Source of the DNA: a phage
Sequence record: PZ445435.1
Strand: one strand, 5' to 3'
DNA: 64,000 nucleotides
Position 1 is the stretch's first letter. Every line of letters starts with the position of its first letter. Below are positions 6,395-50,888 of the stretch, piece after piece. Both the position numbers and the translations under genes were made by a program. The notes beneath the pieces were generated by a model. That model ran no database searches and was not told the DNA's origin. It was given only the letters and a program-made list of their open reading frames with translations.

Positions 6395-7616
<1,222 letters not shown>

Positions 7617-43053: not shown

Positions 43054-43083
43054 ATTATACCACATCCTTGTGGTAAAGTAAAC
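43054..43083 (-). promoter_or_regulatory. T4-type early promoter (palindrome CCACATCCTTGTGG in spacer)
   Basis: GTTTAC ... GTATAAT on minus strand. Confidence 0.5.
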
Positions 43084-44900
43084 TACTGGCTCATCCATTC
43101 TTTACGAAGGTCAGCATTATCTCCCATGAGCATTTCAAAAAGCTCTTTCCAGTTCTCAGGAAGTTTAACAACATCATATACTGGGTTTTGAATCATCTCA
43201 CGATATTCAGATTTTTCCAAAGAGCCAAGTCCCTTAATATAACGGATGCTATGTTTAGGTAGAGCATCTTTGGCACTCTCATATTCAGCGACTGTATAAA
43301 ACCATTCTTGTTTTTTACCGACCTGAGCGATGATTACAGGAGTTTTGACGAAGCGAATTCTTCCTTGTTCAAACAGTTCTGGCCAATTACTAAAAAATCC
43401 GAGCAGAGAAGGATAAATGCTTCCTAGACCATCGTGGTCAGCATCGGTCATAATAGCAATATTATGATAATTCAAGTTTTCAGCTTTTTCACCAAGAACT
43501 AATCCAGTGATTGCGCAAATATCAAATAGTTCTTTGTTTTTAAGCATATCAGCATATGACATACCCCAACTGTTGAGAACTTTACCACGCAATGGATAAC
43601 CACCATGAAGTTCTTTATCACGAACATCAATAAGATATCCGATAGCAGAATCACCCTCAGTCAAGAAAAGAGTAGTATCAGCATCTTTACCGCACAGATT
43701 AGCTTTAATATGTTTATGAACCTTTGCCTTAGAAGCCTTTTTAGCTGCTTTAGTTTCAGCTGCTTTTTCTGCTGCCAATTTACGAGCTAGTGCAGCTTCA
43801 ATAATTGGCATTAAAATTGCTTCATTATTTAAAATAGCGCGTGAAATCTTTTTAGCGTCAAGTTGAATATGACTACGGATTTCACCAAATGGAGAAGTCA
43901 AACGCTCTTTAGTTTGAGAATCAAATCGCATGTTTTTCATATCACGAAGAAACATAACGATAGTCAAACATTCTTTAACACGTGCTTTAGTTACATCAAT
44001 TTTGAATTTACGTTTGATTTGTGGAATAAGGTCTTCACAAATATCATCCATAACGCAGTCAATGTGATGGCCACCATTCTTAGTGTGAATGTTATTCACA
44101 TAAGTTAATTGACGAAAACCATCCGGTGAACGACCAACCGCAATAGAACAATTTTCTTGTTCTTGAACAATAGCATGTTCATCATACTGTCGTGCATATT
44201 TCTTAAAATTGCCCTGAACCTTTTTACCATTAAAGGTAAATTGAATATCAGGATAAACTACTGCAAGTGTCTGGAGACGATCCAGTGTAATGTCAAGATA
44301 AACTTGGGACAGCTCATTAGTTTCAAATGACATAAAATCTGGAATGAAAGTAACACGAGTTCCTTTCCATTTTCCAGGAATAGTTTCCCAGGATTTATTT
44401 TCCATGCCATTTGAACAACGAACTACAATATTATTTTGACCATCGCCAGTTTCACCGACAAACATCACAGAAAAAATGTTAGTTAAACTAGAACCAACAC
44501 CATTCATACCACCGGTGACACGTTCTTTATCATCACCAAAGTTACCACCCGCTTTTGGAATAGTCCAAGCAGCAACTGGACCAGGAATTTCTTCACCGGT
44601 AGGTGTTTTAACCATCGCTTGTGGAATACCACGACCGTTATCTTCAACTGTTACTTGATTGTTTTTGATAGTAACATTAATTTTATTTGCGAATTTAAAC
44701 TTAGTACGAATACCTTCATCTACTGAGTTATCGATAATTTCATCAATAAGCTTAACAAGACCAGGTACATACTGAACACTTTCCCATTTACCAAACAGAA
44801 AGCGCTCATGCATTTCATTAGCAGAAGAGCCAATATACATGCCGCTACGCTTTTTGATATGTTCAATATCGCTCAGAATTTTAATTTCATTCTTAATCAT
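43083..44900 (-). CDS. 39: DNA topoisomerase II large subunit gp39, uninterrupted (T4 39 and 60 equivalents fused)
   Basis: 605 aa continuous ORF; C-terminal 90 aa correspond to what T4 encodes separately in gene 60. Confidence 0.9.
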   Translation of the reverse strand: MIKNEIKILSDIEHIKKRSGMYIGSSANEMHERFLFGKWESVQYVPGLVKLIDEIIDNSVDEGIRTKFKFANKINVTIKNNQVTVEDNGRGIPQAMVKTPTGEEIPGPVAAWTIPKAGGNFGDDKERVTGGMNGVGSSLTNIFSVMFVGETGDGQNNIVVRCSNGMENKSWETIPGKWKGTRVTFIPDFMSFETNELSQVYLDITLDRLQTLAVVYPDIQFTFNGKKVQGNFKKYARQYDEHAIVQEQENCSIAVGRSPDGFRQLTYVNNIHTKNGGHHIDCVMDDICEDLIPQIKRKFKIDVTKARVKECLTIVMFLRDMKNMRFDSQTKERLTSPFGEIRSHIQLDAKKISRAILNNEAILMPIIEAALARKLAAEKAAETKAAKKASKAKVHKHIKANLCGKDADTTLFLTEGDSAIGYLIDVRDKELHGGYPLRGKVLNSWGMSYADMLKNKELFDICAITGLVLGEKAENLNYHNIAIMTDADHDGLGSIYPSLLGFFSNWPELFEQGRIRFVKTPVIIAQVGKKQEWFYTVAEYESAKDALPKHSIRYIKGLGSLEKSEYREMIQNPVYDVVKLPENWKELFEMLMGDNADLRKEWMSQ

Positions 44901-44953
44901 CACTTATCCTCGTTTGGTTTCGGGAATATTATACTCCGGTAATCATAAAGCTA

Positions 44954-46436: not shown

Positions 46437-46718
46437 TTAATTGAACAGTGGAGCGATGCGTTTCAGAAGAGTAGCAGCACCTTTAGCGAATTTTACATCA
46501 TGAAAAACAGTTTCTTCTTCCGTTACAACACGAGCTTTAATGTTTTCACAATCCCAATTTTTGCGAACAATCTTCAAAAGCTGCAGTAAATCTTTACATT
46601 CAGCAATATCGATAACACATCCACGAGAATCTTCCATTATCGCACGATAACCGTAAGCCATACCATAATCATTGAAAGATTGCTCGATGATAATTAAATT
46701 TTCCATTTTATTCTCCAA
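46437..46718 (-). CDS. hypothetical protein (93 aa)
   Basis: ORF track. Confidence 0.4.
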   Translation of the reverse strand: MENKMENLIIIEQSFNDYGMAYGYRAIMEDSRGCVIDIAECKDLLQLLKIVRKNWDCENIKARVVTEEETVFHDVKFAKGAATLLKRIAPLFN

Positions 46719-46803
46719 GTTGTTTTCTGTATCAGTAGTTGATATTGATATAGTACCATAATCAACTACTGATGTATATAGTTTTATGAAAAAATTTTAA
46801 ACT

Positions 46804-47295
46804 TTATGCATAGCGAGCTTTGCTATAGTGTTTAATCCAACTTTCAGGAATGACTTTGTATGTTCCTAAAAATACCGCGTTGTATAACTTAACGCCATCT
46901 TCTACCCATTGATCAGTAATGTATGCACACATAGCGCGAGTACGGTTAACAACACCTTCCTCACCTTCAGTAAATTCAAACTCATAAGGAGCAACGAACT
47001 TAATAGCCTGACCGAGTTTCCACTTAAAGTCTACACCTACATGCGAAGTATCAATCGTTTCAATTCCTTTAGCAGGAACAGCTTTCAAAAACGCAGATTC
47101 AAGAAATTTCGCACGAACATAGCCAAACTGAGGTTTAGACTTTCCATCTTTAGGAATGATACGCACTTTTACTTCAGAATCTTCATCTTTAACACCGTGT
47201 TTAAGCTGAATGCTTACAACTTCGACCAATTTTCCTGCCGCTTTAGAGCGGGATTTATCAGATACACGAGCTAATTCACCAATATTAATAATCAT
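46804..47295 (-). CDS. possible MotB-like protein (163 aa)
   Basis: Size and position between 39 and dexA. Confidence 0.4.
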   Translation of the reverse strand: MIINIGELARVSDKSRSKAAGKLVEVVSIQLKHGVKDEDSEVKVRIIPKDGKSKPQFGYVRAKFLESAFLKAVPAKGIETIDTSHVGVDFKWKLGQAIKFVAPYEFEFTEGEEGVVNRTRAMCAYITDQWVEDGVKLYNAVFLGTYKVIPESWIKHYSKARYA

Positions 47296-47339
47296 AGTTA
47301 TCTCTCACTTGTTAAAAAGATTTTATACTCCACGGGACC

Positions 47340-47369
47340 ATTATACTCTGGTCCCAAGAGTTTGTAAAC
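47340..47369 (-). promoter_or_regulatory. T4-type early promoter (GTTTACA, 18 nt, TATAAT)
   Basis: Consensus -10 embedded in inverted repeat GGGACCA...TGGTCCC. Confidence 0.6.
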
Positions 47370-47806
47370 TAGCTTACACGAACATTAATCACTGCGCTGC
47401 GAGGAACTACAGAGTACTCTCCAGCATGAACTACGTTCAGAAGTTCAACACCATCTTCAATCCACTGATCAGTCACCCATCCACCCACAGGATTCGCGAA
47501 TGGACGACGAATATAAACTGCCTTACACAGTAGATCAGTTGGATCTTCAGGTTTTTCAATTTCTGTCAATAGACTAAAATCTTTTTCATAAATAATAAGC
47601 GGTGATACCATTCCATAATAGTTTCTAATTTCAATATACATCATACCGATAAGAATTCCGCTATTAACACTAATAACAGTAAAAGGATATCCGCCAGTTA
47701 AACCAAGAAGTTCACAAAACTTATTATGAGCTGTATTAGACAGTACCGAAAAATTCTTAATTTCATCAAATTTTTTCAATTGATAAACAGCATTATTTTT
47801 AATCAT
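47369..47806 (-). CDS. hypothetical protein (145 aa), C-terminal domain paralogous to upstream 163-aa protein
   Basis: Shared motif TDQWxEDGVxLxNxV. Confidence 0.45.
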   Translation of the reverse strand: MIKNNAVYQLKKFDEIKNFSVLSNTAHNKFCELLGLTGGYPFTVISVNSGILIGMMYIEIRNYYGMVSPLIIYEKDFSLLTEIEKPEDPTDLLCKAVYIRRPFANPVGGWVTDQWIEDGVELLNVVHAGEYSVVPRSAVINVRVS

Positions 47807-47816
47807 AATTTTCTCT

Positions 47817-48320
47817 TTAATCTAAGGTAATAAAGCCTTTTAATTCGGCATGTGACTTGCGGAACATTACTTGATGCCCACCAATGATAACTTTATCTTC
47901 AGGTACTTCGTATACAGCGAGATAAAATCCTTTAGAAGCTAATTCTTCACGCTCTTCTCGTGTGAACCATCTCATCATATCATATTCACTAGCAAAAGCA
48001 AAATGATAAAGAGCTATAAACCATCCTGGAATATAGTGATCTACGCCTACATATTCTTCTTTCTCAAAATTAGTATTAATTGCTATATTAGCATTTTTAA
48101 CTAATAGTTTGTCTTCGTGCGGAAGAGGAATTCTTTTATTATCATTACTATGATGCATAAAATTAGGTCTGTCATAACCTACGTGTAATAACCACTCTTC
48201 GCTCCATGAATCCATTATACTCCTGTACGGCGTTATTTGAACACAAAGATCTCGACGTATTGTTATAGCATCTTCATAATTAAGAATACTAAATGATGAT
48301 TCAACACGATAAATTTTCAT
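47817..48320 (-). CDS. hypothetical protein (167 aa from internal ATG)
   Basis: GAGGA SD before internal ATG; track start would overlap the promoter. Confidence 0.45.
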   Translation of the reverse strand: MKIYRVESSFSILNYEDAITIRRDLCVQITPYRSIMDSWSEEWLLHVGYDRPNFMHHSNDNKRIPLPHEDKLLVKNANIAINTNFEKEEYVGVDHYIPGWFIALYHFAFASEYDMMRWFTREEREELASKGFYLAVYEVPEDKVIIGGHQVMFRKSHAELKGFITLD

Positions 48321-48347
48321 TTTATTATCCTCAGTAGCTATGGTGTT

Positions 48348-48377
48348 ATAATACCACAACTAACCGAGGAAGTAAAC
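48348..48377 (-). promoter_or_regulatory. T4-type early promoter
   Basis: GTTTAC ... GGTATTATAA. Confidence 0.5.
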
Positions 48378-48383
48378 AACTTT

Positions 48384-49067
48384 TTATCGTTTTGTTGGAA
48401 GAGATAGAGGATCGCACTCTTCCTCTGACGGAGCATCTTCAAGACCCATAGCATATCGCAAAGCATACTTCATCATCAGGATGTCTTTCGCACAATCATG
48501 AATAGAATCATGCGCAACGAATCCATCTAAAGTTCCCTTTGGAAGAGGACATGTAGTCATATCACGAACAAGCAGAAGTGCTTCAATTCTGGTACGAATA
48601 TCACGCTGATTCCAGAATTTACAAGGTTCTAACTTAAACGTATCAAGCTCATTCTCAGAAACGCCATTAAGACGTTGAATATCGCGAATGAGATCGACTA
48701 AAATTGGAAAATCAAACGACATTCCACGGCACCAACCTTGAGATTTCCAAGGATCGATATTATGTGCATTGATGTAATCGTTGAATTTTGCAATACCATC
48801 AATGGTGCTTACATCTTCATCGGATGGTGCAATATTTTTTCGAGCTTCAGGAGACTGATTTTTCCACCATTCGATAGTGCTTTTAGTAAAAAGACGATGT
48901 CCTTTTTGGCTTTTTAAATCAAATTTGATTTTAATGCCACGTGAAACTAATTCATCAAATGTTTCAACAACTTCTGGGTTAGGGTCAAAGGCAATAACAG
49001 CCAAATCAATAACCGCTGCTTTTTCACCGCTTCCCATTGTTTCAAAATCTATAATAAAATCAAACAT
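48384..49067 (-). CDS. dexA: exonuclease A (DEDD 3'-5' exonuclease)
   Basis: 227 aa; N-terminal FDFETMG exo motif. Confidence 0.8.
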   Translation of the reverse strand: MFDFIIDFETMGSGEKAAVIDLAVIAFDPNPEVVETFDELVSRGIKIKFDLKSQKGHRLFTKSTIEWWKNQSPEARKNIAPSDEDVSTIDGIAKFNDYINAHNIDPWKSQGWCRGMSFDFPILVDLIRDIQRLNGVSENELDTFKLEPCKFWNQRDIRTRIEALLLVRDMTTCPLPKGTLDGFVAHDSIHDCAKDILMMKYALRYAMGLEDAPSEEECDPLSLPTKR

Positions 49068-49568: not shown

Positions 49569-50888
49569 TCATACGTAAAACACATCATAACGACCACGAG
49601 TGACACCAACATAAAGAAGCTGCTGAGCTAATTCAGCATCTGCATAATGAATACAAGGCGTATAGATGAAAGCACGGTCTACAGACATACCCTGCGCTTT
49701 ATGGAATGTTGATGCAGGAAGTGCTTTCACTTTACTAAACTGTGATTTAGCATCCCAAAAATCACTCCATGGAGCTTTTCCGCCTTTATTCCAATTTTTA
49801 TAAGTTTCTGCGGTTTTACCTAAAAATAGGTTAAACTTATATAGCTCTTCATCGGATGAAATTATTTTAATCTTTTCACGATAATATTCATCATCGCCAT
49901 AAGTTTCTACTGTTAAATCCCAATGACGAATTAGATATTCTCCAGGAACACCACGAGCTTTAACAAAGGTTGATGTATACTCTGCTTCTATAATACGAAC
50001 TAATTGTCCGTTATTAAAAATAATTTCTGACACAGGCTTTCCATCAATTTTATATGTTTTAATTAATGGTTCCTGCATTACAATAATTTCACCGACAATA
50101 AAATCTTTATCAGTTTCAAAAATCTTTTTACGAATAATGCTATTTAACTTGTCAACAGATTTATTCGTAAATGCCATTACGCGATTTTCAAACAAATCAT
50201 CTAGTGATTTGACGATTGAAAAATAATTTACCATAAAATCGCGTAAAGCGGTATCACCGGTAAATCCACGTACTCCATGACCGTCAACAACTTTATCATA
50301 AATCCACTTACCGTTACGAACGTCAGTAGCTACATCAATAATAGGAGCATTACTGCGTTTAACTTCAGTGAGTTCACACTGATAAAAATCTTTGTGTGTA
50401 AAGAATGGACTGATATAAGCAGTATTTTCTCCTGGGTCAACAGGTCTAATTTGCTTATTATCACCTATTCCAATTATAGTACACCAAGGTGGAATGGTTG
50501 AAAGCAGAATTTTAAATAGCTTTCTATCATACATTGACACTTCGTCGCAGATTAATACCCTGCATTTAGCTAAATCTGGTACTTCTTTTTGTTCAAAAAG
50601 AACGTTTTCTTCATATGTTACTGGGTTAATTTTGAGAATACTGTGAATAGTACTTGCTTCTTTCCCAGATAGTTTTGAAAGAATCTTTTTAGCTGCATGA
50701 GTAGGAGCTGCTAAAATAATACCAGTTTCACCTGTAGATATTAGGGCTTCAATAATGAACTTAGTAAGAGTAGTCTTACCAGTACCAGCAGGTCCATTAA
50801 TAGTTACATGGTGTTTCTTTTCTTTGATAGCCCTCATAACGATGTTAAAGGCATTTTTCTGGCCTTCGGTCAAATCATCAAATGTCAT
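49569..50888 (-). CDS. dda: DNA helicase Dda (SF1B)
   Basis: 439 aa; GPAGTGKTT Walker A. Confidence 0.9.
   Translation of the reverse strand: MTFDDLTEGQKNAFNIVMRAIKEKKHHVTINGPAGTGKTTLTKFIIEALISTGETGIILAAPTHAAKKILSKLSGKEASTIHSILKINPVTYEENVLFEQKEVPDLAKCRVLICDEVSMYDRKLFKILLSTIPPWCTIIGIGDNKQIRPVDPGENTAYISPFFTHKDFYQCELTEVKRSNAPIIDVATDVRNGKWIYDKVVDGHGVRGFTGDTALRDFMVNYFSIVKSLDDLFENRVMAFTNKSVDKLNSIIRKKIFETDKDFIVGEIIVMQEPLIKTYKIDGKPVSEIIFNNGQLVRIIEAEYTSTFVKARGVPGEYLIRHWDLTVETYGDDEYYREKIKIISSDEELYKFNLFLGKTAETYKNWNKGGKAPWSDFWDAKSQFSKVKALPASTFHKAQGMSVDRAFIYTPCIHYADAELAQQLLYVGVTRGRYDVFYV

Follow-up and report, generated by a model that had tools for sequence, protein, structure and literature searches.

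The motB locus

The DNA analysed here, referred to as the window, is a stretch of 64,000 nucleotides (sequence record PZ445435.1) that can be assigned, on the basis of its sequence, to a T4-like phage (Tequatrovirus). Over 2 kb, its DNA is 100% identical to that of two Escherichia phages, PaulHMueller and AugustSocin, and its identity with many further Tequatrovirus genomes exceeds 96%. On the minus strand, the order of transcription is dda, two small ORFs, dexA, an ORF of 167 or 180 aa, the ORFs of 145, 163, and 93 aa, cef, goF together with small ORFs, and a 606-aa topoisomerase II large subunit. The tandem ORFs of 163 and 145 aa are identifiable as the early genes motB and motB.1, respectively; motB.2, motB.1, and motB follow one another as in T4, and motB.1 and motB stand in tandem within the non-essential dda-dexA-motB-cef-goF-39 region. 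The features of the locus are as follows.

49569–50888, minus strand: dda helicase (ORF list)
48384–49067, minus strand: dexA exonuclease (ORF list)
47817–48359, minus strand: motB.2 ORF, 180 aa from a TTG start; phrog_1106 (unknown function)
47369–47806, minus strand: motB.1 CDS, 145 aa plus stop; phrog_2333, PF17613 (partial)
47340–47368, minus strand: putative sigma-70-type (T4 early-type) promoter of motB, directly after the motB.1 stop codon
46804–47295, minus strand: motB CDS, 163 aa plus stop; PF17613, phrog_1671
46437–46718, minus strand: 93-aa ORF between cef and motB; phrog_3720 (unknown function)
43083–44903, minus strand: topoisomerase II large subunit, a single 606-aa ORF

The 163-aa product matches the Pfam family PF17613 from end to end (334.8 bits against a cut-off of 25, E 9.6e-101, residues 1–163 on profile positions 1–162 of 162) as well as phrog_1671, 'MotB-like transcriptional regulator' (E 3.5e-76), and motB, or modifier of transcription, is its annotation in identical and near-identical phage records. 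The 145-aa product matches phrog_2333 over residues 1–144 (E 9.3e-68), and full-length similarity together with synteny places it in the MotB.1 subfamily (PHROG 2333; category 2 of Son et al. 2021). Its match to PF17613 (32.7 bits, cut-off 25) is confined to residues 104–139, aligned on profile positions 118–153; MotB.1 therefore belongs to this family via its C-terminal module only, and its N-terminal domain (NTD) lies outside it. Searches of the motB.2 product and of the 93-aa product against Pfam gave no match. In annotated relatives, motB.2 begins at an internal ATG (near 48320), yielding a 167-aa protein that starts MKIYRVESS....

By consensus match, motB has its own early-type promoter. 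The putative element reads TTTACA-17-TATAAT, agrees with the consensus at 11 of 12 positions, and is the best site of the region as judged by consensus match only; its sequence is identical in T4, and it is annotated in phage Kha5h as a consensus host promoter. Between motB and the 93-aa ORF, close behind the motB stop codon, lies an imperfect 20-nt inverted repeat (46731–46773; 85% complementary, with a 3-nt loop and a perfect outer 13 nt). A consensus scan found no terminator after motB, and this repeat is unlike a classical intrinsic terminator because no T-run follows it. It may form a hairpin that acts in RNA processing or stability.

A C-terminal domain shared by MotB and MotB.1

An earlier note on this DNA, made from the sequence alone, proposed that the 163-aa and 145-aa proteins share a C-terminal segment but have unrelated N-termini, and this is confirmed, with the quoted peptides being exact. 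BLASTP aligns the two proteins over a short core with 16 of 29 identities and 21 of 29 positives (E 5e-10). The Smith–Waterman score is 98, far above the 28.0 ± 4.4 (maximum 51) obtained with 2000 shuffles of the second protein, none of which reached it (z = 15.8). Family alignments of 27 MotB-type and 23 MotB.1-type proteins, compared by hhalign, match with a probability of 98.3% (E 1e-14), residues 93–157 of MotB being placed on residues 92–142 of MotB.1 with a 13-residue insertion in MotB. Given this range, the homologous unit is the entire C-terminal domain (CTD) of about 51–65 aa, extending beyond the 29-aa core. The PHROG families of the two proteins also cross-match in the same pattern as Pfam.

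Chance or compositional artefact might be entertained as the source of the similarity, since the obvious match is only 29 aa long; this is refuted by the shuffle test, the BLASTP and hhalign values, and the reciprocal Pfam and PHROG cross-matches, and retains practically no credibility. MotB and MotB.1 are thus identified, by sequence comparison, as paralogues with one homologous CTD of about 55–75 aa, corresponding to the C-terminal half of PF17613. The N-terminal halves show no such relationship: between MotB and MotB.1, BLASTP gave only an off-register pair at E 0.26 in this part, and hhalign aligned nothing N-terminal. A six-frame hmmsearch of the 64-kb window with both CTD profiles found no third copy of the module, the next best E-values being 0.27–0.4. 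The domains are delimited as follows.

47089–47295, minus strand: MotB NTD, aa 1–69, basic KOW-like five-strand barrel (AF2 model, charge, homologue alignment)
46807–47037, minus strand: MotB CTD, aa 87–163, the shared module plus a MotB-specific long hairpin (AF2, hhalign)
46840–46926, minus strand: MotB conserved core, aa 124–152, AYITDQWVEDGVKLYNAVFLGTYKVIPES (BLASTP)
47558–47806, minus strand: MotB.1 NTD, aa 1–83, beta-barrel with inserted helices (AF2; LSm-like according to PMC12152347)
47372–47545, minus strand: MotB.1 CTD, aa 88–145, a minimal form of the shared module (AF2, hhalign)
47396–47482, minus strand: MotB.1 conserved core, aa 109–137, GWVTDQWIEDGVELLNVVHAGEYSVVPRS (BLASTP)

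The core follows the motif [ST]-D-x-W-x-E-[DE]-G-x-x-L-x-N-x-V-x-x-G-x-x-x-V. Columns that are invariant across the superfamily hold D, W, E, G, L, N, V, G, and V, lysine and arginine being absent from this set, and aromatic residues are conserved at the invariant W and at three further positions. In MotB, the invariant D, W, E, and N are D128, W130, E132, and N139. Within the MotB.1 family, nearly all residues from G109 to H127 are invariant.

The relationship itself is a correct re-discovery: the shared CTD and the differing NTDs were published in 2021 (PMC7827196), and the present demonstration therefore adds little. Son et al. 2021 described the common CTD, the different NTDs, and the probable duplication of one gene from the other, and sorted 102 phage homologues into four categories by their NTD (PMC7827196). 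What is added here, and is of modest value, is a reading of the CTD as an SH3-type barrel, the narrow distribution of the family with its KOW-like plus CTD ancestry, and an apparent one-base problem in the T4 reference motB.1.

Fold of the shared domain

Both CTDs are modelled by AF2 as four strands, a turn, and a further strand. In MotB, the strands span residues 97–110, 115–132, 135–142, and 145–150, followed by a helical turn at 151–153 and a strand at 154–157, with pLDDT mostly 81–94 (mean for the whole model, 79). In MotB.1, they span residues 96–99, 107–117, 120–127, and 130–135, followed by a helical turn at 136–138 and a strand at 139–143, with pLDDT 84–93 (mean for the whole model, 83). 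The helical element between the fourth and fifth strands is the only one in either CTD. In SH3-type small barrels, a helical turn lies between β4 and β5, whereas in the OB-fold a helix lies between β3 and β4. Because its only helical element falls between β4 and β5, the CTD is read as an SH3-type barrel.

For the module, the models accordingly predict an SH3-type small beta-barrel (β1-β2-β3-β4, helical turn, β5) and not the published OB-fold; Son et al. 2021 had assigned the MotB CTD in silico (HHpred) to the cold-shock-type OB-fold (PMC7827196). The combination expected of a cold-shock OB-fold, a β1-β2-β3-helix-β4-β5 order together with structural neighbours that are OB domains, was not found, as far as the models go. 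Five strands, a short 3-10 turn between β4 and β5, and neighbours of the SH3-type class were found, the searches for neighbours having used whole two-domain models without aligned ranges, so that matches may come partly from the NTDs, themselves small barrels. A Foldseek search of viral models returned MotB.1 relatives, MotB, and phage proteins labelled 'KOW domain-containing'.

The likeness to SH3-type barrels, such as the KOW domains of NusG/Spt5 and the Tudor, PWWP, chromo, and BAH domains of the 'Royal family', is one at fold level only: Pfam and PDB profile searches found no match of the CTD to SH3-type families by sequence. With the CTD profile, a search of all PDB sequences gave no match at E <= 10, and a solved relative is thus undetectable by sequence. 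The cold-shock type of OB-fold, as in the C-terminal domain of eIF5A, is also a small five-stranded beta-barrel of similar size, whose members often bind nucleic acids.

The N-terminal domains

The earlier note had taken the N-termini to be effector or targeting regions. Nothing found here supports this. By prediction, each is a small beta-barrel of the nucleic-acid- or protein-binding type—KOW-like in MotB, LSm-like in MotB.1 (Kim et al. 2025)—and neither is an enzyme or toxin domain.

The MotB NTD is modelled with strands at residues 8–11, 23–30, 41–46, 56–61, and 65–67, carries a net charge of +5 (pI 9.75), and is joined to the CTD by a linker (residues 70–86) that is disordered in the model, with pLDDT below 50. 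The Pfam KOW family PF00467 (cut-off 22.3 bits) was not matched by the window's MotB or by its NTD alone, and only PF17613 was reported at E <= 1. Two distant homologues, P0242 (24.8 bits) and P0248 (22.9 bits), exceed the PF00467 cut-off, and their NTDs align with that of MotB. The MotB NTD, having no direct profile match of its own, is therefore KOW-like through a chain of homology together with its fold.

In the MotB.1 NTD, AF2 places strands at residues 7–10, 42–49, 55–61, 67–73, and 80–83 and helices at residues 24–37 and 74–79. Kim et al. 2025 report residues 1–82 of T4 MotB.1 as an LSm-like fold that is common to GoF and Frd.2 (PMC12152347), and the five strands and two helices modelled here are compatible with this GoF/MotB.1/Frd.2 fold.

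Distribution and origin of the module

The CTD profile, searched against 1.84 billion representative proteins, gathered only 31 clusters at E <= 1e-3. Three of the proteins found, P0243, P0245, and P0246 (601–842 aa), are rejected as spurious members, each giving 4–7 matches over 20–27 profile positions; the two that were read (P0243 and P0246) contain a short repeated G-Y-x-[TW]-[QE]-[QK]-[WN] motif. The remaining clusters hold proteins of 43–251 aa. Every CTD cluster that was traced came from T4-like phages, with contigs or genomes of about 165–175 kb, whose hosts are Escherichia, Shigella, Klebsiella, and Serratia, and the family is, going by these searches, confined to T4-like phages. Across these phages, the notion of a shared module fused to differing N-termini is borne out repeatedly, the CTD standing behind KOW-like NTDs, behind MotB.1/LSm-like NTDs, and in longer forms of 180 and 250 aa.

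Among the longer forms, the 180-aa proteins (P0086 and P0101) carry the CTD after one extended, divergent MotB.1-like NTD, and those of about 246–251 aa (P0040, P0047, and P0050) carry it after two tandem divergent copies; NTDs thus vary in number as well as in type.

KOW motifs occur at the N-terminus of the most divergent members, P0242 and P0248 being above the Pfam cut-off and P0249, whose cluster includes Klebsiella phages KpV477 and Mineola, giving a weak PF00467 match below it. CTDs of the MotB.1 type (DPTDLLC...GWVTDQWIEDGVELLNVVH...VVPRS) are also found behind KOW-like NTDs (P0119, P0230, and P0232), and P0233–P0235 have intermediate CTDs in which a MotB-type hairpin is combined with MotB.1-type flanks. 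Klebsiella phage pzk-kv8 has a single gene, of 147 aa and consisting of a KOW-like domain and the CTD, at the syntenic locus (dda, dexA, small ORF, [gene], cef, ... 39). The cores of motB and motB.1 in the window are identical at 51 of 87 nucleotides (59%), with 13 of 29 third codon positions shared, which argues that the duplication is old.

On the strength of the KOW motifs in divergent members, the intermediates, the single-copy gene of pzk-kv8, and the low DNA identity, the ancestral gene most likely encoded a KOW-like NTD followed by the CTD, was duplicated long ago, and subsequently had the NTD of its MotB.1 copy replaced by an LSm-like barrel. Recent recombination or gene conversion between unrelated neighbours would offer another source of the C-terminal similarity, as motB and motB.1 are adjacent, T4-like genomes are mosaic, and deletion or fusion products such as the 43-aa P0244 occur at this locus. 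Such an exchange is nevertheless very improbable: identity is low even over the best-conserved 87 nt, with third positions near random; in many phages, CTDs of the MotB type and of the MotB.1 type each form a conserved subfamily of their own; and intermediates and single-copy genomes exist. With old duplication and domain replacement as the preferred history, MotB.1 would be a case of N-terminal domain replacement in a family that seemingly began as a KOW-like plus CTD gene.

The 43-aa P0244, from Escherichia phage BYEP01, joins residues 1–17 of MotB.2 (MKIYRVESSFSIL.YED) to the C-terminal 26 residues of the MotB.1 CTD, the equivalents in the window being 48320 (the ATG start of MotB.2) and 47372–47455. 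Its sequence suggests that a deletion joined motB.2 to the 3′ end of motB.1 across a short YED/IED microhomology, and a comparable product is the 29-aa 'category 3' peptide of RB69 (Son et al. 2021, PMC7827196).

An apparent frameshift in the T4 reference motB.1

The T4 reference (AF158101.6 / NC_000866.4) carries one extra G in motB.1, reading GGATTGGAAGA where the window has GGATT-GAAGA; the site lies at about 47457–47462 of the window and at about 2292–2340 of the compared stretch of NC_000866.4, near position 7300 of that record. Because of this single base, the reference MotB.1 is 119 aa long and ends ...WVTDQWIGRWR* inside the conserved module; downstream of the extra G, the other frame still encodes the rest of the CTD. 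The insertion is found only in the two reference records and is absent from 13 others (eleven T4 or T4T records plus RB55 and RB59), and MT984581 encodes a 143-aa MotB.1 with the full CTD. On this comparison of records, the extra G appears to be either a one-base error or a stock-specific frameshift, removing half of the module.

Any construct whose synthesis followed NC_000866.4 would then encode the truncated MotB.1. Kim et al. 2025 cite NC_000866.4 for cloned T4 fragments, obtained plasmids by gene synthesis, and give MotB.1 as 13.8 kDa (PMC12152347), and for these reasons their plasmid-borne MotB.1 was presumably the truncated form. The same study found that MotB.1 had no effect in an RNA reporter and that a motB.1 deletion had no phenotype and a normal burst size (PMC12152347). 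If the plasmid-borne protein was indeed truncated, the reported lack of a MotB.1 phenotype or activity tells little about the intact protein.

Proposed roles of the two domains

T4 MotB, made early and in abundance, binds DNA tightly, coats it with no sequence preference, and modulates H-NS; its overproduction de-represses H-NS-silenced host genes (PMC6070864, PMC7827196). Patterson-West et al. 2018 showed that it binds DNA at about 100 nM irrespective of sequence, whether the DNA is unmodified or carries glucosyl-hydroxymethylcytosine, that its protection spreads over entire fragments, and that it doubles the burst size; a direct contact between MotB and H-NS was not found without DNA (PMC6070864). 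In the work of Son et al. 2021, MotB altered the DNase I footprint of H-NS, and its overexpression up-regulated 75 host genes, of which about 30% are H-NS-regulated (PMC7827196).

The idea of the earlier note that the shared segment is a binding module is plausible. The shared domain itself is not basic. The MotB CTD has a pI of 6.8 and a net charge of 0, and that of MotB.1 has a pI of 5.0 and a net charge of −2 (core pI 4.2; full-length MotB.1 pI 5.35). Since no basic residue is invariant and the CTD is neutral to acidic, electrostatic attachment to the DNA backbone is unlikely to be what all carriers of the module have in common. Electrostatic contact with DNA would instead be supplied by the basic KOW-like NTD and by MotB-specific basic residues, and the shared CTD would supply a contact that is not electrostatic: the proteins would associate with themselves or with one another along DNA, or would dock to the same partner on the host nucleoid. 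Association of CTDs with one another would account for the cooperative spreading of MotB.

Taken together, this division of labour is given a little less than an even chance. Against it stands that no direct contact between MotB and H-NS was seen without DNA (PMC6070864). The normal burst size of the motB.1 deletion and the lack of a known MotB.1 phenotype also weigh against it, as does the published assignment of the CTD to the cold-shock OB-fold (PMC7827196). The conserved acidic and aromatic motif could, moreover, be purely structural, as in a tight turn. That published OB-fold assignment (PMC7827196) implies a different role, in which the CTD itself binds nucleic acid, MotB and MotB.1 are two DNA or RNA binders, and the NTDs tune other contacts; this role, the main rival, is somewhat less likely than that of a protein contact.

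Of the proposed non-electrostatic CTD contact there is a more specific version, which is unlikely as a whole: the CTD would be no OB-type DNA binder but an SH3-type barrel whose D-x-W-x-E-x-G face serves as a protein-contact surface, by which MotB, MotB.1, and their variants associate mutually or bind one common host nucleoid protein, and the published MotB.1 work would have used the truncated 119-aa form. An SH3-type CTD with an invariant acidic and aromatic motif would make assays for partners or for oligomerisation sensible besides EMSA. As the best explanation overall, the account given here, comprising the identity of motB and motB.1, their paralogy, origin, and fold, and the proposed CTD contact, is jointly regarded as probable.

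Comparison with T4 and its relatives

The topoisomerase II large subunit is a single ORF here, whereas it is split between gene 39 and gene 60 in T4. Gene 60 of T4 contains the 50-nt translational bypass; T2 and T6 have the fused form. At the site of the 93-aa ORF, by comparison, the T4 reference has a 170-nt gap without an annotated gene.

T4 MotB (PF17613 'motB, modifier of transcription') is the orthologue of the 163-aa protein, which shows about 90% identity with P0124, the T4-type protein of 162 aa; the locus, the upstream early-type promoter, and the two-domain layout all agree. The difference amounts to one additional residue and a few substitutions in the MotB-specific hairpin, and is nothing substantial.

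T4 MotB.1 (P0026; UniProt P39415 'uncharacterized 13.8 kDa protein in motB-dexA intergenic region') is likewise the orthologue of the 145-aa protein, with 78% identity over the common part, and its gene lies between motB.2 and motB, as does the 145-aa ORF here. The two part company at their C-termini: the 119-aa T4 reference entry is cut within the CTD motif, whereas the protein encoded in the window carries the complete CTD.
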